Positions 44,358-51,927 of a stretch of 64,000 bases of DNA are shown here, piece after piece. The DNA comes from Vicinamibacterales bacterium (GTDB taxonomy: Bacteria > Acidobacteriota > Vicinamibacteria > Vicinamibacterales > UBA2999): assembly GCA_035626435.1 (NCBI GenBank), contig DASPNQ010000209.1, forward strand, positions 7,623-71,622. Reading direction: 5' to 3'. A program made the position numbers and the translations under genes. The number at the start of each line of letters is the position of its first letter. Within the stretch, counting starts at the first letter, position 1. The notes under the pieces were generated by a model. It saw only the letters and a list, made by a program, of their open reading frames with translations, did not search any database and was not told the DNA's origin.

Positions 44358-47036
44358 CTACTGCGGCCGGTAGAACAGCCACCGCTCCGGCGTGGCGTCA
44401 TCCCAGGCGCACAACGGCGGCCGCGACAGGAACTCCATGCCGAGGTCGCCGATCGGCGCGCCCGGCGGCGCCGCCAGCGGCGCGATAATCCGCGCCGACA
44501 TGGCGTCGTTCATCGGCCGTTCGAGGAAGCGCTTGATATCGGCCGCCAACAACGCCCGATGCGCGCGCTCGAGCTCGCCCGCCGTGCCGGGTCTGCCCGG
44601 CGCTGCCGCCGGCGGACGGACCCGATCGGCAATCTGCTGCAACTTGAGCGAGGCGATGGCGCGCACCTGCGCATTTGGCGACGAGGCGGCGAGCCAGGCG
44701 ACGCGATCGACCAGCACACGCTCGACGGCGCGGCGCACTTCCGACTCGTAATTGGTGGTCGTGGTCTGTTCGAACGCCGCCTTGACGAGACGATCGATCA
44801 CTTCGCCAAGCCCAGGCCGCGATTGCTCCACGGCGTGCTGGGCCACCATGCGCGCCGCCCGATCCGGCTGCAGCACGAACCCGATCGTCACTTCGGCGGC
44901 GATCGCCGCCGGCGCGATCGGATCGAACGCCTCGCCGGTCGTGCGATTGAACAATTCGCGGTGCATGCCGTAGCCGGGCGGCCGCGGCGGAATCAACTCG
45001 AGAATCCGCTGCGGCAGCACCAGTTCGGAGACGCGCAACGTCTGCCCGAGCGCGTCGATCGCCTTGCGTTGGGCTTCGCCAGACACCCATTCGACGGGCG
45101 TGCGGCCATCGCCGCGCATCGCATAGACGAAGTCCTGGCCGCCGATCATCGACGCCGCGGATTCCACCGTGTAGCGGTGGTACATATAGGTCGTGACCAG
45201 CGGCTCTTCGATCAGCGCGGTCGGCGTGCCGGTGCGGATCGTGTTGACGCCGATGCGATTGAGCGCCGCGCGGCGCACGCGCATGATGCGCGCCAGCTCG
45301 TCGGCCTGATCGGTGCCGTTCGACCACTGGTCCGAGCGCGGGTGAATGTCGGTATCCTGGTTCGTGAAGTACCGCAAGTCCTCCTTCCACGCATCGTCGA
45401 GGATCTTGGTCAGCGCCGCCGCCTCGTCGGTGCCGGCCGGAAACTGCCGGTAGCCGTAATTGATCGCGACCTTGTCCCAGTCGCCGATCTTCTGCTCGTA
45501 GGCCTTCGACAGATCGATGGTGCCGTCTTCACGCAGCGTCTCGAGCGGGTGCGGGTAATCCAGCGTCGAGATCCAGCCCTTGCTGCTGCTGTAATAGTTG
45601 TGGCCGAGGCCGAGCGTGTGACCGACTTCGTGCGCGGACAGCTGGCGGATGCGCATCAGCGCAGCGTCATAGAGGATCGAGGGCCGTTCGGTGCCGTTGG
45701 TGTACGGCGACAGTAGCCCCTCGAAGATCATGTAGTCCTGGCGGTCGCGCAACGATCCGAGCGTGACGGTGGCCTTGATGATCTCGCCGGTGCGCGGGTC
45801 GGACACCGACCCGCCGGAGCTCCAGCCGCGCGTCGAGCGATGCACCCAGTTGATCATGTTGTAGCGGATGTCCATCGGATCGGCGTCCGCCGGAAGCACG
45901 TCGACCTTGAAGGCGTTGCGGAAGCCCGCGGCCTCGAAGGCCTGGTTCCACCACATCGCGCCTTCGATCAGCGCTTTCTTGACGTCTTCCGGCGCTCCGG
46001 GATCAACCCAGTACTGAATCGGCTTGATCGGTTCGCTGATCGCGGCGTTGGGATCTTTCTTTTCGAGCCGATGGCGCCGGATGTAGCGAAATTGAATGGG
46101 CTCGCCGATTGGCTGGCTGAAATCGACGAAGGTCGCGCCGCCGTATCCGGCGCGGGGATCATCGTGCCGCGGCTTGAAGTTGTTGTCCGGCAGTTGCACG
46201 AACGAGGCATGCTGTCGCAGCGTCACCGCTTCCGGTGTGGGCGTCACGCTCGCCACCGATCCCGAGAACAAGCCGCCGCCAAAACCGCCGCCGCCGCCAC
46301 CTGCGGTCTGGCCGATCGGCGCCGGCCCCTGGACCGGTCCGCCGCCGCCGCCACCGCCGGTCGGCTCGTTGACGAACGTCAAGGTCATGTCGACTTCCGT
46401 GTTCATCGGGAAGTTGCGGGTGTTCGGCAGATAGAACGCGCTGCGCGTGCGATCGACCCGGTAATTGCCCGGCCGCAAGCTCGCAGCGGCGTTGGCGACA
46501 TCGCGCAGGTAAAAATCGGTCGCGTCGACGAGCACGCGGCCGCCCGATTCCGCCGCGACGGTGAAGCCCCACAGGATTGACTTCGCGAACGAGTCCTCGA
46601 CCGACTTGCGTTCGAGCGGGTTGGCACTGCTCGATCGGAACGACTGGTTCGGTTGCACGAGCAACACGCGCGGGCCGACGCGCTGGAAGACGACCAGCCT
46701 GCTGCCGCGGCCGGAGCCGCGGTCCAAGCCGATGTCGTTCGAGCCGAGACCGGCCGACAATCCGGTGGTGAACAGGAACTCGGTATCGAAGCGCGGGATT
46801 TCGAGGAACAGCGAGCCGCTCCGCTCGTCCCAGTAGATTGGGAAGTAGCCGTCGAGCTTTTTCATGCCCGAGGTGCGGTCGTCGATGGATGGAGGTGGTG
46901 CCGGCCGTTGCTGTTGCGCGGGCTGGCGGCCCTCGACGAGGCTCGGCGTCGTCGCGGTGAATGCAGACGGCCGCGCCTCGATCACCGGGCCGGCAAGCAG
47001 CACGGTACCGACAAGCAGAACTGATTGTTTGAACAT
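44358..47036 (-). CDS. exported zinc-dependent metalloprotease (met-zincin, DUF5117/DUF4953-type)
   Basis: ATG 47036 lies 5 nt after AGGAG. Signal peptide MFKQSVLLVGTVLLAGPVI. HEVGHTLGLGHN zincin motif. Gly-rich insert (TGGGGGGGPVQGP...AGGGGGGFGGG). Large size typical of this family. Confidence 0.8.
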   Translation of the reverse strand: MFKQSVLLVGTVLLAGPVIEARPSAFTATTPSLVEGRQPAQQQRPAPPPSIDDRTSGMKKLDGYFPIYWDERSGSLFLEIPRFDTEFLFTTGLSAGLGSNDIGLDRGSGRGSRLVVFQRVGPRVLLVQPNQSFRSSSANPLERKSVEDSFAKSILWGFTVAAESGGRVLVDATDFYLRDVANAAASLRPGNYRVDRTRSAFYLPNTRNFPMNTEVDMTLTFVNEPTGGGGGGGPVQGPAPIGQTAGGGGGGFGGGLFSGSVASVTPTPEAVTLRQHASFVQLPDNNFKPRHDDPRAGYGGATFVDFSQPIGEPIQFRYIRRHRLEKKDPNAAISEPIKPIQYWVDPGAPEDVKKALIEGAMWWNQAFEAAGFRNAFKVDVLPADADPMDIRYNMINWVHRSTRGWSSGGSVSDPRTGEIIKATVTLGSLRDRQDYMIFEGLLSPYTNGTERPSILYDAALMRIRQLSAHEVGHTLGLGHNYYSSSKGWISTLDYPHPLETLREDGTIDLSKAYEQKIGDWDKVAINYGYRQFPAGTDEAAALTKILDDAWKEDLRYFTNQDTDIHPRSDQWSNGTDQADELARIMRVRRAALNRIGVNTIRTGTPTALIEEPLVTTYMYHRYTVESAASMIGGQDFVYAMRGDGRTPVEWVSGEAQRKAIDALGQTLRVSELVLPQRILELIPPRPPGYGMHRELFNRTTGEAFDPIAPAAIAAEVTIGFVLQPDRAARMVAQHAVEQSRPGLGEVIDRLVKAAFEQTTTTNYESEVRRAVERVLVDRVAWLAASSPNAQVRAIASLKLQQIADRVRPPAAAPGRPGTAGELERAHRALLAADIKRFLERPMNDAMSARIIAPLAAPPGAPIGDLGMEFLSRPPLCAWDDATPERWLFYRPQ

Positions 47037-47132
47037 GACCACTCCTAGCAAAGCTGAGTCGTGGTCAGATTCTACCGTTGCCGCCGCGGCTGTGTCGGCG
47101 AATGTCTCTTCGCCTGGTTATGCCGTTCGTCG

Positions 47133-47372
47133 CTACTTCTCGTCGTCTTCGGTCTCTGACTGATGTTCCGACTGATCAGCCGGTTCGGCGTCGGCGGCAT
47201 CGGCTGCCGATTCTCCGGAGGGCGTCGCCTTGGTGTAGGAAGGCGGTTTGCCTTCCATCCGGCGAGTCGACGCGGCGTCGACCTGCTTTTGCCGCTCGCG
47301 CGCGATGTCGTCCGGCGACAGCCGGCCGGCCTGCGTGTACATCCCTGGGTTGACCTTGTTGTGTTTGCTCAT
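47133..47372 (-). CDS. small acidic-tailed hypothetical protein, translationally coupled to the release-factor-like gene
   Basis: 79 aa. The ATG overlaps the upstream TGA (ATGA at 47369-47372). Basic N-terminal half (MSKHNKVNPGMYTQAGRLSPDDIARERQKQ) and a strongly acidic C-terminal tail. Confidence 0.6.
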   Translation of the reverse strand: MSKHNKVNPGMYTQAGRLSPDDIARERQKQVDAASTRRMEGKPPSYTKATPSGESAADAADAEPADQSEHQSETEDDEK

Positions 47373-48520
47373 ATGCGGAACCGTAGCAGCGCGCCGACGC
47401 CGCCGACCTCCTCCAGAAGGCTGGCATCCTCGATGAAGCGGATGCGGGCGGCGGTCTGTTGCGCGCGCTTGATTAATTCAGCGGACAGCTTCAACCGCGA
47501 TTCGTCGACGCCGCCCTGCGGCGCCGAGGTGTCGGCCTGCATCTCCGTCGCAGAGTTGGCCGGCATTGTCTGCACCGGCTTCAACGTTTCGACCGCGCCG
47601 GTGATGATCAGCTCTTCGACCTGTCCGAGCTCGAACGCGCGCAGCGTCGCCTCGGGACCGGTCACGCCGAGTCCGCTGCCGAGCCACTCGTCGAACAGCT
47701 CCTGCACCTTTTCGGCGTCGGACTCCGCGTCCTTCCGCCAGATCTCGGCGAGGGTGTCCTCGAGTGCGCTGCCAGGAGCGTTGCGCTGCAGCGGCACCGT
47801 CGCGACGATCTTCTCGGCCAGATGGGCCGGCAGCTGCTCGCGTAGTTTTGGCAGCGCCACTTCGTCAGCGGCGACGACAATCTGGTTGAGATGTTCTTCG
47901 CGCACAATCCGCTCGAGCGCCTCCGCCACTTCCTTCATGTGATGCAGGTGCACGTTGTCGGCGCGGCGCTGGTACCGGGCTTGCGACCAGCCGCCCTGTG
48001 AGCTGCGGCGTGTCTTGTCGTTGACGATTCTTTCCTCGCGCTCGGTCGCCGCCAGGCTGAAGACCAGGATGCGCGCTTTGTTGGTGTCGACCATGACCGC
48101 GGCATAGCGCGGATATGTATCCACGAGCTTGGCGAGCGGGTAGAGATGCGGCACCGACCCGACGAACATCCAATGATCGTCAAACGGCGTTTCGAGCGGG
48201 ATGGCTTCGAACAGCTGCGCGCCCGCGCAGGCGAAAATGGCGACGCCCTGCCATGACGGATCGCGTTCGCTGGCCAGATACTGCCGGATCCGCTCGGCGT
48301 CCTGGTCGAAGCTGTCGCGCTCCGGTGAGTTCTGCCGGAACGACTTGGCGCGCTCCGGAAACACCTTGCGCACGAACACGTCGAAGTCTTCTCTGCCGTT
48401 CTGGTTGGGCTTGAGGCTGAGGTACAGGCTGATCACTGGAAACGGACTGGGTTCCAGCGCGGCCAGTATCTCCATTCGCTGACTCAAAGGCTGCACGGAC
48501 AAGGGCATGGAATCGGCCAT
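47369..48520 (-). CDS. eRF1/Pelota/Vms1-superfamily (baeRF/VLRF1-like) release-factor homologue
   Basis: 383 aa. The central segment QGGWSQARYQRRADNVHLHHMKEVAEAL aligns with the eRF1 M-domain [25 protein letters not shown], with the Gln shifted as in Vms1-type GSQ loops. The C-terminal end VGGVGALLRFRI resembles the eRF1/Pelota C-domain end. Confidence 0.7.
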   Translation of the reverse strand: MADSMPLSVQPLSQRMEILAALEPSPFPVISLYLSLKPNQNGREDFDVFVRKVFPERAKSFRQNSPERDSFDQDAERIRQYLASERDPSWQGVAIFACAGAQLFEAIPLETPFDDHWMFVGSVPHLYPLAKLVDTYPRYAAVMVDTNKARILVFSLAATEREERIVNDKTRRSSQGGWSQARYQRRADNVHLHHMKEVAEALERIVREEHLNQIVVAADEVALPKLREQLPAHLAEKIVATVPLQRNAPGSALEDTLAEIWRKDAESDAEKVQELFDEWLGSGLGVTGPEATLRAFELGQVEELIITGAVETLKPVQTMPANSATEMQADTSAPQGGVDESRLKLSAELIKRAQQTAARIRFIEDASLLEEVGGVGALLRFRI

Positions 48521-48634
48521 GCCGGCTGTAGTGCAAGGGCGGGGCCAGCGGTCAGCCGACAGCGGTGGCGAAGCGTTGGGGAAAGTTTCGACAGGGCCCG
48601 GCTTGATGCAGGCCCCGTCGTGAGGACGCGCGCG

Positions 48635-48994
48635 TTACTTGATGATCGCCGTCGGCTTGTTGTTCTGGTACTGCAGCGTGATGTGCGAAGCCGCGCACAG
48701 GTCGAGGCTGTCCCACTCGATCTCGTCGCCGTCCTCGTCTTTGATCTTCAGATCCCAGTCGCACGACTTCTCGCTGCGCGAGAACGTGATGTCGACCGAC
48801 TCATTGTGCTTCAGCACGTCGCGGCCGAGAACATCCTCTTCCCAATCGTCGGCTTCATCCGGCGACACGTAGAGCTCCATGATCGTCACGCCGGTGCGAT
48901 TCATCAGCGTGAAATCGAGCTTGCTCTGCCGGGCGACAATCGGCGAGGAGGCGACGGTCGCGAGCAACACGAAAGCGAGTGCGGCAATTCTCAT
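48635..48994 (-). CDS. small exported hypothetical protein
   Basis: ATG 48994 lies 9 nt after GGAGTGG. Signal peptide MRIAALAFVLLATVASS. The mature part has two Cys and an acidic patch (DEADDWEEDVLG). No known function. Confidence 0.55.
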   Translation of the reverse strand: MRIAALAFVLLATVASSPIVARQSKLDFTLMNRTGVTIMELYVSPDEADDWEEDVLGRDVLKHNESVDITFSRSEKSCDWDLKIKDEDGDEIEWDSLDLCAASHITLQYQNNKPTAIIK

Positions 48995-49067
48995 ATACGT
49001 AACCACTCCAATCACCAGGGAAGTTTTGGTAAGTCAAGACGTGCAAACCAGCAATCATACGTGAAAC

Positions 49068-49709: not shown

Positions 49710-50483
49710 TCAGCGTCTGGTCACGTGCGCGGATACCGCGAGCCACCGGCCGTCGCGGCGGGCCCAGACGTCCGTGTAACGGCCGCCGCCGGGCGTGCCG
49801 TCCGCCGTCACGTAACTGGTACGCGCATGCACGATCGCGACATCACCCAGCAACCGCACGTTGACGTCCTGCGCCTGCAGATTGCGGATCGTCACCGGGC
49901 GCGCCGTGTAGTCGAGGAACGCCTCGCGATCCAGCAACGAGCCGTCCGGCATCGAGCACAGAAAATCAGGCGCCAGAATCTCGCGGAAACGCTTCACATC
50001 GGATCGCTGCACCGACTGCACGTAGTCCTCATTCAACTTCGTCAGCTCCTCGACATCCTTCGCAACGCCCATGGTCCCGCCTCCAGCCCTTCGCATCCCC
50101 GCCAAGGTCGCTTCGTCCACGCTGATGACGATGGTCGTGTACGAATCAATGCCGGCGAGAATGCGCTCCCGCGGGCCCTTGATCCATTCCTCGCTGCCGT
50201 AAAACGCGTCTTCGTCCTGCTGCCGCTTGCCGACGCCGTCGAAGGCACGCATCAGGAAGTACGAGTCGCGGTCGTGCAGCGACGGGCCGTAGCCGACGAC
50301 GTCGACCTTCCATCGCCGCAGCATCGGCAGCGCTTCCTTCAGAAACAGCTGATGAAAGGCCTCGCGCGTTCCCGGTTTCAGGTTATAGGACCGGATCTCC
50401 AAGATCCTTGACGGCGTAGATTGCCCGGCCAGCGGTGGAGCGAGCACCGCTGCCACGCAGAGCAGGCCGATGAATGTCCGCAT
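49710..50483 (-). CDS. exported NIPSNAP domain + NTF2-like (DUF4440/SnoaL) fusion protein
   Basis: ATG 50483 is preceded by GGAGGG. Signal peptide MRTFIGLLCVAAVLAPPLAG. NIPSNAP-like ILEIRSYNLKPGTREAFHQLF...YFLMRAF. C-terminal NTF2-like ELTKLNEDYVQSV...RYTDVWARRDGRWLAVSAHVT. Confidence 0.68.
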   Translation of the reverse strand: MRTFIGLLCVAAVLAPPLAGQSTPSRILEIRSYNLKPGTREAFHQLFLKEALPMLRRWKVDVVGYGPSLHDRDSYFLMRAFDGVGKRQQDEDAFYGSEEWIKGPRERILAGIDSYTTIVISVDEATLAGMRRAGGGTMGVAKDVEELTKLNEDYVQSVQRSDVKRFREILAPDFLCSMPDGSLLDREAFLDYTARPVTIRNLQAQDVNVRLLGDVAIVHARTSYVTADGTPGGGRYTDVWARRDGRWLAVSAHVTRR

Positions 50484-51927
50484 GCGTTTCCCTCCGAGAA
50501 AGTGTTCGTTGATCGCCGGCAGACAGCCACAACAGCATGACGGCGTAGGCACGCCAAGGCCGCCACGCCTCCGAGCGCAGCGCCAATTGGCGCGCGCTGA
50601 CGCCGCCGGCCATGCGTTTCAAAATCAGATCGCCGGACAGGAAAGCGTCGGGGTGATTCAGCGCCCGCATCGCGACGTATTGCGTCGTCCAATCGCCGAT
50701 GCCGGCGATCGCGCGCAGCGCGGCAAGCCCCGTGTCGTCGTCGAAATTCACGACACCGTCCCTGACCGCGCGCGCCACGGCACGCAGCGTGTCGGCACGA
50801 GCCGCGGGAAGTCCGGCCTCTTCGACCGGCGCTGCGGCAAGTTGCGAGGGCGATGGGAACAGATGCGTCAGCCGGTGATCGCTTCCGATTGGCGTGCCCC
50901 ACCGCGTGGCAAGGCGTCCGGCGATGGTCGTCGCGGCGCGGACGGAAATCTGCTGGCCAATGACGGCGCGGACGGTGAGTTCGAACGGATCCCATGCGCC
51001 CGGCGTGCGAATGCCCGGATGAGCCGTGAGCGGCCGCCGCAGTAATGGGTCATCGCCGAGTTGGGCCGCGATTGCCGCGGGATCGGCGCCGACATCGAAC
51101 ATCCGCCGCACCCGCTCGATGATCGTCAGTAGACGCCGCGGCTCGGCGGTCTGCACGTCGACTATCAGCATCGACGCGTCTGCGACGTGGCTCACCGAGA
51201 TCGACCCGATGCTGCCGTTGACGGCGATGGTGCGCGAATAGCGTTCGCCCTCGACGATCTCGACACCGGGCGTGGCACGCGCAGCGAGGAATGCGATCAG
51301 CGCCTTCCAGTCATAGGGCGGGCGATAGGCCAGCTTGAACCGATACCCGCTGCCTTGGGAAACCGCGCGCGACAGTCGTCGCAATTCGCCCGGGGTGCGC
51401 GCATACGTCCGCCGGATTTCGCCGTTGAAGCGACGCACGCTGCCAAAACCGGCGGCCGCCGCGACCTGCGCCAGCGGCAGGCGCGTTTCGTCGAGCAGTT
51501 TTTTCGCGAGCTGGACCCGCCGCGTCAGCGCGACCTCGAGCGGCGTCGCACCTAGGTGCTGAACGAACAGCCGCCGCAGATGGCGCGAAGTCACACCGAC
51601 GCGATCGGCGAGCGGGTCCACGCCGCCGTGATCGAGGGCGCCTTCCGTAATCAGCCGCAACGCGCGTGACACGACGCTCGACGTGCCGAACCAGGCCGGT
51701 GTGCCGGGCGCCGCTTCCGGCCGGCAGCGCAGGCACGGCCGGAACCCCGCCGCTTCGGCGGCCGCGGCGGTCGAGTAATAGCGAATGTTCTCGTCCTTCG
51801 GCGATCGCGCAGGGCAGATCGGCCGGCAATAAATTCGCGTGCTGGTGACGGCGATGAAAAACTTGCCGTCGAATCGCGCGTCGCGGGATCGGCGTGCGCG
51901 ATCGCAGACGCGACGGTCCAGCTCCAT
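50383..51927 (-). CDS. Ada-type Zn-finger/AraC HTH fused to AlkA DNA-3-methyladenine glycosylase II
   Basis: N-terminal Ada Zn-binding pattern (FFIAVTSTRIYCRPICPARSP...GFRPCLRCRP), an AraC HTH (GVTSRHLRRLF...FGSVRRFNGEIRR), an AlkA N-domain and HhH-GPD (GIGDWTTQYVAMRAL). The last 45 aa lack family resemblance and overlap the next gene. Confidence 0.85.
   Translation of the reverse strand: MELDRRVCDRARRSRDARFDGKFFIAVTSTRIYCRPICPARSPKDENIRYYSTAAAAEAAGFRPCLRCRPEAAPGTPAWFGTSSVVSRALRLITEGALDHGGVDPLADRVGVTSRHLRRLFVQHLGATPLEVALTRRVQLAKKLLDETRLPLAQVAAAAGFGSVRRFNGEIRRTYARTPGELRRLSRAVSQGSGYRFKLAYRPPYDWKALIAFLAARATPGVEIVEGERYSRTIAVNGSIGSISVSHVADASMLIVDVQTAEPRRLLTIIERVRRMFDVGADPAAIAAQLGDDPLLRRPLTAHPGIRTPGAWDPFELTVRAVIGQQISVRAATTIAGRLATRWGTPIGSDHRLTHLFPSPSQLAAAPVEEAGLPAARADTLRAVARAVRDGVVNFDDDTGLAALRAIAGIGDWTTQYVAMRALNHPDAFLSGDLILKRMAGGVSARQLALRSEAWRPWRAYAVMLLWLSAGDQRTLSRRETHADIHRPALRGSGARSTAGRAIYAVKDLGDPVL

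Follow-up and report, generated by a model that had tools for sequence, protein, structure and literature searches.

A 64,000-nt stretch of DNA from a Vicinamibacterales bacterium (Acidobacteriota; GCA_035626435.1, contig DASPNQ010000209.1, positions 7,623-71,622 of the forward strand), referred to here as the window, carries on its minus strand two overlapping genes that encode a homologue of the aeRF1 release factors and a small partner protein (Table 1). An original prediction for this locus had described open reading frames (ORFs) of 383 and 79 codons joined by an ATGA overlap, and both were found. No strong Shine-Dalgarno sequence lies upstream of the small ORF at this junction in the window, and coupling of the two genes by termination and reinitiation is therefore likely. 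The start of the large gene is ambiguous. Position 48520 gives a protein of 383 residues, while M16 at 48475, a frequent choice of gene callers, gives one of 368 residues; the exact copy at NCBI comprises 368 residues from M16 and is named 'Vms1/Ankzf1 family peptidyl-tRNA hydrolase [Vicinamibacterales bacterium]'. Since many loci matched the large protein from residue 1 in tblastn searches and the alignment of its relatives has consensus residues at L8 and L12, sequence comparison favours the longer form starting at 48520.

Table 1. Features of the two-gene locus, in window coordinates.
Feature	Position	Strand	Basis
Large gene, 383-residue three-domain protein of the aeRF1/Balon type	47369..48520	-	Pfam baeRF_family10 and eRF1_3, model, Foldseek
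N-terminal domain, ~residues 1-122	48155..48520	-	Sequence, alignment to 8v9j_z, model
Nearly invariant loop/hairpin ending the N-domain, residues 108-129, PLETPFDDHWMFVGSVPHLYPL	48134..48199	-	Alignments, model
Middle domain, ~residues 123-262	47735..48154	-	Pfam baeRF_family10 match region
Catalytic-type loop, G176-G-W-S-Q-A-R-Y-Q-R-R186	47963..47995	-	Alignment to the eRF1 GGQ loop; motif given in PMC6514570
C-terminal eRF1_3/Pelota-type domain, ~residues 263-383, ending GGVGALLRFRI	47372..47734	-	Pfam eRF1_3, alignment
C-domain insertion, residues 308-339 (~32), strand predicted for 327-331	47504..47599	-	Alignment, model
ATGA stop/start overlap of the large and small genes	47369..47372	-	Read as ...CGC ATA TGA / ATG AGC AAA CAC...
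Small partner gene, 79 residues	47133..47372	-	Translation; no match in Pfam, NCBIfam or PADLOC
Small-protein N-terminal module (conserved), residues 1-30, MSKHNKVNPGMYTQAGRLSPDDIARERQKQ	47283..47372	-	Only region shared by the whole family
Small-protein tail, acidic and of low complexity, residues 49-79	47136..47228	-	Specific to the clade of the window

The best Pfam match of the large protein is to baeRF_family10 (PF18854), the top-scoring family of its clan, with 101.4 bits over residues 124-258 against a cut-off of 27.1. This family signal is far above chance (E = 6.7e-29, with more than 5,000 homologues). The runners-up were family2 (59.3 bits) and acVLRF1 (53.8 bits), and further overlapping, weaker matches came from other baeRF families and Host_attach. 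The eRF1_3 C-domain was detected slightly above its cut-off (29.5 versus 25.8 bits), eRF1_2 fell below its own (22 versus 27.1 bits), and Pfam VLRF1 gave nothing at E ≤ 1. Among NCBIfam models the Rv2629-family and MSMEG_1130-family hibernation factors ranked first, followed by aRF1/eRF1 and then acVLRF1. None of these reached its cut-off: NF052289 Rv2629_fam, the best NCBIfam match, scored 81.1 bits (E = 8.5e-23) against an equivalog cut-off of 320, NF052288 MSMEG_1130_fam 54 bits against 480, TIGR03676 aRF1_eRF1 43.6 against 234.7, acVLRF1 32.3 against 125 and NF052287 AOC03_06830_fam 20.4 against 330. The validated hibernation factor Msmeg1130 falls in this Pfam family too: its residues 24-375, reconstructed from HMMER output and checked against 8v9j_z, score 124.7 bits on baeRF_family10. 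A profile of the window family detects both mycobacterial proteins, Msmeg1130 and Rv2629. The proteins grouped as 'Balons' are themselves strongly divergent, and a search of the PDB with the Msmeg1130 sequence returned only itself, with no match to Rv2629 or to P. urativorans Balon even at E ≤ 10.

The predicted structure agrees with this assignment. A first AlphaFold model, built from an alignment of close relatives only, had a predicted local distance difference test (pLDDT) score of 65.7 and gave ambiguous Foldseek ranks. It was superseded by a second (AF2) model based on 64 sequences at 26-85% identity, with a pLDDT of 91.6 and a predicted template-modelling score (pTM) of 0.87. With this second model, Foldseek aligned the protein to ribosome-bound Msmeg1130 Balon at E = 2.7e-21 with a whole-chain template-modelling score (TM) of 0.78-0.82, and the corresponding TM values were 0.63-0.71 for P. 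urativorans Balon, 0.66-0.69 for Rv2629 and 0.26-0.54 for aRF1/eRF1 (E = 2e-18 for aRF1 4af1). Overall, matches to Balon, aRF1 and eRF1 had E values of 1e-21 to 1e-12 over ∼380-440 aligned columns. Vms1 (6r84_R) was matched at E = 2e-3 and TM 0.23 when the first model was the query, and it fell outside the top 50 with the second. The protein has the three domains of the aeRF1 superfamily, including an RNase-H-like middle domain and a Pelota/eRF1_3 C-domain, and its C-terminal GGVGALLRF aligns with GGIGAVMRY or GGIGAMLRY of eRF1, as expected from the eRF1/Pelota-like C-terminus that had been noticed in the original prediction. Its proposed place in the eRF1 superfamily and among the baeRF families is borne out by Pfam and Foldseek alike. 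The large protein is a baeRF-1 family 10 homologue of aeRF1 with the three-domain architecture of Balon.

Two published studies bear on what such a protein may do. Burroughs & Aravind defined the baeRF-1 clade in 2019 (PMC6514570) and argued that most of its families are non-catalytic, as they lack the catalytic Gln, have poorly conserved loops of variable length and are encoded beside HPF. They describe family 10 as having a well-conserved Gln in a catalytic loop of constrained length and raise catalysis in this family as a possibility. Bacterial eRF1 homologues had been called experimentally uncharacterised in the original prediction, which is out of date, as Helena-Bueno et al. in 2024 solved structures of ribosome-bound Balon, Msmeg1130 and Rv2629 and described them as hibernation factors that occupy the A site together with EF-Tu (PMC10901736). 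In that report the group is characterized by loss of NIKS with an extended loop at the decoding centre (bearing an HP motif in Balon), by loss of GGQ, and by an insertion in the EF-Tu-binding C-domain, and all bacterial aeRF1 homologues, found in ∼20% of species, are counted as homologues of Balon.

The middle domain of eRF1 reaches the peptidyl-transferase centre, and the corresponding domain of the window protein has a loop that corresponds to the eRF1 GGQ loop. In a phmmer alignment to S. pombe eRF1 (3e20_C) the segment 'rrssqGGWsQaryqrradnvhlhhmkevae' is ungapped, with W178 in the position of the Gln of GGQ and Q180 two residues later, exactly the arrangement that had been read from the letters in the original prediction. 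Both glycines are present, and G176-G177-W-S179-Q180 fits the GxuQ motif of the eukaryotic and bacteroidetal VLRF-1 families and the GGxSQ motif of aVLRF-1 and acVLRF-1, as these are defined in PMC6514570. The literal GGQ is absent, but loss of the catalytic motif, as described for the Balons, is not clear-cut here. All of 57 close relatives have GGWSQ, R182, Y183, Q184 and R185 without exception. The 80 reference-genome loci had been fetched by the large protein with the GGWSQ and GGVGALLRF patterns, and they are uninformative on the generality of the motif; a whole-library search, which is motif-unbiased, gave 3,328 representatives at E ≤ 1e-3. Among its best 150, 79 sequences were full-length, and 58 of these have GGWSQ, down to ∼28% identity, with a loop of almost constant length; most of the others have the near-variants GGWAQ, GGYSQ or GGMSQ. 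Judged from these alignments, GGWSQxR[YF]QR defines a large clade. The invariant Q180 and the nearly indel-free loop match what was described for family 10. The direct comparison of loops among hibernation factors covered Msmeg1130, which has ...ERAGQMREQ... at this place. HMMER pairs its Gln with Q180 and MAFFT pairs AGQ with GGW, a disagreement of two residues, and under either alignment neither the GG pair nor the GxuQ pattern is found in the Msmeg1130 loop.

The remaining domains resemble those of the ribosome-bound Balons. None of the stop-codon motifs NIKS, GTS and YxCxxxF was found in the large-protein sequence. A 'SLYL..P.QN' segment of the N-domain resembles the N-domain of Msmeg1130 (SLY..P.QN), and the nearly invariant loop at the end of the domain is a candidate decoding-centre contact, in which Y127-P128 is aligned with H123-P124 of Msmeg1130 and is a tentative counterpart of the HP motif of Balon. 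The C-domain insertion is matched by that of Msmeg1130 in the alignment and occupies the place where Balon has its β-hairpin/EF-Tu insertion and eRF1 its zinc ribbon or mini-domain.

The small protein matched no family in Pfam (to E ≤ 1), NCBIfam or PADLOC. A first search recovered 34 relatives with an almost invariant N-terminus, MSK[HQ]NKVNPGxYTQAGRLSPDDxARE, and a profile of the N-terminal 45 residues extended the family to at least 1,402 clusters, nearly all of 50-80 residues and none with a Pfam domain or a name. More than 1,000 natural large-small pairs exist. Of the 30 loci with a large-protein identity of 51% or higher, 29 have a small homologue immediately downstream in the same orientation; over all 80 loci a hidden Markov model places one there in 40, with three more divergent ones recognized by eye in other phyla (loci L059, L074 and L052). 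Conversely, all eight independent members of the small-protein family for which the context was examined lie immediately 3' of a baeRF_family10 gene. The original prediction had placed the small ORF in a two-gene module and suggested co-occurrence as the check, and these counts uphold it. The junction is a −4 ATGA overlap in 11 loci, a form that recurs among the small-protein members examined for context, and a gap of 4-20 nt with a GGAG-type Shine-Dalgarno sequence in 14, with gaps of up to 183 nt in the rest. The two genes are a tight operon, and the small protein is conserved.

Beyond the N-terminal module the small proteins diverge. In the window protein, residues 1-48 are basic (10 K/R versus 5 D/E) and the sequence from residue 49 is acidic (∼11 D/E versus 1 K), so that the basic half and acidic tail of the original prediction are correct for this protein; however, the acidic tail is confined to the clade of the window and is not a feature of the family, in which most lineages have tails that are basic, short or hydrophobic-ended. 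Many are rich in Lys and Ala, basic and up to 216 residues in length, and others are short and end in '...RPRSAPEE'. In L020 and L023 the tails are Lys/Ala/Pro-rich, resemble histone H1 and extend to 216 residues, and the small ORFs of L012 and L014 (from 5170) close with ∼20 hydrophobic residues and then RR (for example AAVFLLAAGAAICLSLYVVRRL), a segment that by inspection is like a C-tail membrane anchor. One metagenome-assembled genome (MAG), DASTBV01 (isolate SMAG_U775), contains two paralogous pairs, L016 and L035, whose large proteins are 63% and 49% identical to the query and whose small proteins have different tails, one of 162 residues and Lys/Arg-rich, the other of 64 residues and ending in ...RSVPEERD. 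A perfect 7-bp palindrome, GTCGACG-CGG-CGTCGAC, lies at 47266-47282 in codons 31-36 of the small ORF, directly after the conserved motif, and the hairpin is not conserved elsewhere. Control through a truncated mRNA in the manner of ArfA and BrfA was rejected, as the small ORF has no minus-strand terminator, as was a conserved hairpin within the ORF, as the position of the strongest local fold varies between nt 33 and nt 519 among 40 loci.

We tentatively favour, with confidence a little short of even, a reading of the large protein as an A-site factor of the Balon type that possibly still releases peptides, in other words one that can 'release and park'. Judging from the solved Balon complexes, it would occupy the A site of the 70S ribosome independently of mRNA, and would do so without reading stop codons, since it has neither NIKS nor the other codon-recognition motifs. 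The conserved N-domain loop would touch the decoding centre, the C-domain insertion would contact EF-Tu and the middle-domain loop would reach the peptidyl-transferase centre. Upon stress or stalling the factor would enter the A site, its loop would trigger hydrolysis of the P-site peptidyl-tRNA irrespective of a stop codon and, after release, the factor would hold the ribosome idle. Translational coupling would supply the small protein in a fixed proportion to the factor; the most likely docking site of its 30-residue module is the factor or the ribosome surface next to it, and its interchangeable tail would tune binding, localization or activity. Catalysis is favoured because the loop fits GxuQ/GGxSQ and is invariant and of fixed length, the criterion for an active family that Burroughs & Aravind apply, and because the eRF1-like R-[YF]-x-R helix is kept and no linkage to HPF was seen, unlike in the baeRF families that lack the Gln.

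Several points weigh against catalysis in particular or against this proposal as a whole. Msmeg1130 also has a Gln at or near the same position of its loop (AGQ), so the Gln alone is not predictive of catalysis, and the invariant Trp at the canonical Gln position could equally be a stacking plug, against A2602 or the A-site cleft. Hydrolysis has not been reported for the closest characterized relatives, all of them hibernation factors, and P. urativorans Balon adjoins an intact peptidyl-tRNA (PMC10901736). No later paper on bacterial members that retain the Gln was found in a literature search. Nothing was identified that would spare translating ribosomes from a codon-independent hydrolase. 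The protein also scores far below the curated cut-off of every NCBIfam equivalog, and we infer ribosome binding, EF-Tu contact and partner binding in every case. Finally, a sizeable GGWSQ subclade at ∼45% identity, recognized by its 'TSQGGWSQARFQ' loop, has no small partner, and the partner is therefore not essential to the core activity.

There is an appreciable possibility, though one that stops short of probable, that the protein is instead a purely non-catalytic hibernation factor of the Balon type, which blocks the A site together with EF-Tu on idle or translating ribosomes and uses GGWSQ as a shape-specific plug. The Trp would then stack on A2602 or in the A-site cleft and keep the peptidyl-transferase centre inert, and the small protein would be an accessory for co-hibernation or tethering. 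Such a role is in keeping with the whole-chain TM of ∼0.8 to ribosome-bound Msmeg1130 and the shared Pfam family, with hibernation-factor models as the top NCBIfam matches, and with the lack of NIKS and the C-domain insertion, both of which are Balon-like. Msmeg1130 (PDB 8v9j/8v9l) shares with the window protein the baeRF_family10 match, the three domains, the absence of NIKS, the insertion site and an Arg-rich helix after the loop, and it is described as lacking GGQ in PMC10901736 in spite of its loop Gln. The small variants that are Lys/Ala-rich or apparently tail-anchored recall RNA-binding proteins and the membrane-tethering hibernation proteins YqjD/ElaB/YgaM (10.1101/2024.08.16.608256). 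However, Msmeg1130 is only ∼18% identical to the window protein, the GG pair and the GxuQ pattern are found in the latter alone, and no small partner with an NKVNP motif is reported for Msmeg1130, although no search for one was made here. P. urativorans Balon (8rd8/8rdv/8rdw) and Rv2629 (8v9k) likewise have the fold of an aeRF1-derived A-site factor, but Balon has a lasso loop, a bL27 trap, no GGQ-type motif and a gene that is often beside RaiA (PMC10901736), whereas the window protein has the GGxSQ loop and no HPF/RaiA nearby. A loop that is invariant, fixed in length and fits GxuQ/GGxSQ is unlike the variable loops of the non-catalytic baeRF-1 families described in PMC6514570. Also against a role in hibernation alone are the wide misses of the hibernation-factor equivalog cut-offs and the lack of any HPF/RaiA or stress-operon context, phmmer having found no HPF/RaiA in the window or in 87 loci with approximate E. 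coli queries of limited sensitivity.

A stronger form of the catalytic reading, which we consider rather unlikely, is that the GGWSQ clade is a catalytically live Balon, that is, an EF-Tu-associated, codon-independent peptidyl-tRNA hydrolase that descends from the archaeo-eukaryotic line and works in bacteria, with the NKVNP small protein as its specificity or regulatory subunit. By analogy, the subunit might, for example, sense the state of the ribosome, as ArfA does for RF2, or restrain the factor. ArfA, BrfA and ArfT are small adaptors that allow a release factor to act without a stop codon (PMC6881298, PMC8012679), and the resemblance, an analogy only, is that a protein of ∼60-80 residues, often with a basic tail, accompanies a release-factor-like protein. 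There is no sequence similarity; moreover, the window protein is conserved at its N-terminus and has an acidic tail, and the hairpin that would truncate the mRNA is not conserved. ArfA-type genes are not known to be encoded beside their release factor. The small partner family is not mentioned in the searched passages of PMC6514570 or PMC10901736.

The original prediction had compared the loop to that of Vms1/ANKZF1-type (VLRF1) proteins. This comparison is sound for the motif and does not extend to the fold and architecture, which are Balon-like. We therefore regard it as improbable that the protein is a Vms1/ANKZF1-like quality-control enzyme acting on split 50S-peptidyl-tRNA, either by hydrolysis or by cutting the 3'-CCA of the tRNA, even though the loop fits GxuQ/GGxSQ, the Pfam acVLRF1 model scores 53.8 bits and the identical NCBI protein bears a Vms1/Ankzf1 name. 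The VLRF-1 families lack one or other of the terminal domains, the Pelota C-domain in aVLRF-1 and the N-terminal codon domain in acVLRF-1 (PMC6514570), whereas the window protein has all three domains and superposes on the 70S-bound Balons. Pfam VLRF1 was not matched, the NCBIfam acVLRF1 score is far from its cut-off (32 versus 125), the structural similarity to Vms1 is marginal, and no RqcH/NEMF-type gene was found among the neighbours.

The tight coupling of two genes with a small, rapidly diverging partner could also recall a conflict module, of either the toxin-antitoxin or the anti-phage type, in which the large protein arrests translation and the small one neutralizes it. Conflict-driven origins have been proposed for some rescue factors (PMC6514570), and the distribution of the family over MAG taxa is patchy. 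We nevertheless consider such a function, which the original prediction had entertained, to be very improbable. PADLOC had no match for either protein, and what it gave for two neighbouring ATPases was weak P-loop noise (E no better than 3e-3). The surrounding genes encode housekeeping or secreted proteins, their synteny is stable within each lineage and shows no signs of mobile elements, and nothing about them is defence-like. In addition, the large subclade that has the big gene alone makes a toxin unlikely, because a toxin would not tolerate the lack of its partner. As for a stop-codon-dependent class-I release factor supplementing RF1/RF2, the ungapped alignment of the middle domain loop and helix (GGW-SQ-ARYQRR) and of the C-terminal domain (GGVGALLRF versus GGIGAMLRY) to aRF1/eRF1 is outweighed by the missing NIKS, GTS and YxCxxxF motifs, the Trp in place of the catalytic Gln with a Gln shifted by two, the Balon-like N-domain and the TIGR03676 score (43.6 versus 234.7), and the chance of this is close to negligible.

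Apart from the small ORF, no neighbour of the large gene is constant, and the other neighbours vary by lineage. Recurrent neighbours were clustered from our own ORF calls, which in high-GC DNA are contaminated by antisense ORFs, and only clusters confirmed by Pfam annotation were kept. In the lineage of the window the order is Ada/AlkA, SnoaL, AAA_28, a 119-residue secreted protein, the pair, and a DUF5117/DUF4953 metalloprotease. The first of these, within the conserved upstream synteny block, is a 514-residue fusion of Ada (Zn-binding, HTH_18) and AlkA (AlkA_N, HhH-GPD) at 50383-51927 (minus strand), a DNA-repair regulator and glycosylase. The protein of 119-126 residues at 48635-49015 (minus strand), 114 nt upstream of the large gene, has an N-terminus like a signal peptide and an acidic C-terminal half; it has no credible Pfam match, and gene callers place it likewise in contigs of the same species. 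The secreted zinc metalloprotease (897 residues, 44358-47051, minus strand), which has a poly-Gly insert (GGGGGGGPVQGPAPIGQTAGGGGGGFGGG), lies 81 nt past the small ORF. The gap before it contains a match to a σ70-like promoter at 47098-47069, and this synteny is kept in at least 14 loci of the window lineage. No tRNA or tmRNA gene was found within the window. In another subclade, Sua5/YrdC (threonylcarbamoyl-AMP synthase, for tRNA t6A) immediately precedes the pair in the same orientation, with a tRNA_bind (PF01588) gene intervening in one case. This arrangement is present at L027, L032, L035, L036, L046, L053, L058, L063, L066, L085 and L087 and at the locus of one small-protein member, and in this subclade a DUF3810 gene converges on the small ORF from its 3' side, while a divergent σ54-type response regulator is common upstream.

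A σ54 promoter candidate upstream of the large gene, TGGCCCCGCCCTTGCA at 48532-48547 (minus strand) with −24/−12 spacing (TGGC-N7-TTGC), was treated as a chance match. Transcription from it would begin at roughly the ATG at 48520, so that the 383-residue form would be leaderless or the 368-residue form would have a 45-nt leader. The strict motif occurs in 8 of 88 sequences, of which 4 are the window and contigs of the same species, and none of the close relatives L004-L024 has it. σ54-type activators lie near 12 loci, and a similar element, TGGCGCTCGCCTTGCA, is upstream in L074 and L075 from Rokuibacteriota/Methylomirabilota. Homologues at 55-75% identity also occur in MAGs labelled Cyanobacteriota, Acidimicrobiia, Burkholderiales or Bifidobacterium (L004, L009, L010, L015, L030, L059 and L076), which suggests binning errors or recent horizontal transfer. 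In the ENA ERZ250395xx contigs L084, L085 and L086 the baeRF_family10 gene is broken into 2-4 called genes by apparent frameshifts, and these are probably errors of long-read assembly rather than pseudogenes.

The superfamily, the Pfam family, a solved relative within that family and the 2019 suggestion of family-10 catalysis are already known. What appears to be new is the GGWSQ clade on a Balon scaffold, the presence of a validated Balon in the same Pfam family, and an obligate-looking family of small partners. If the factor is non-catalytic, the finding shrinks to a new subfamily of an already known hibernation factor, plus an accessory protein. If the clade does prove to be a live Balon with a regulatory subunit, it would represent an undescribed two-component system for rescue, or for release followed by hibernation, widespread in soil Acidobacteriota and found in several other phyla, and the large and small proteins are a ready two-protein system for biochemistry and cryo-electron microscopy. 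Bacterial eRF1 homologues have been shown to be hibernation factors without a catalytic motif, and the GGxSQ clade keeps the loop on the same scaffold. It is thus a natural test case for whether some 'Balons' kept peptide release and for how a termination factor became a hibernation factor, and it is abundant in soil Acidobacteriota, slow growers for which dormancy and the preservation of ribosomes matter ecologically.

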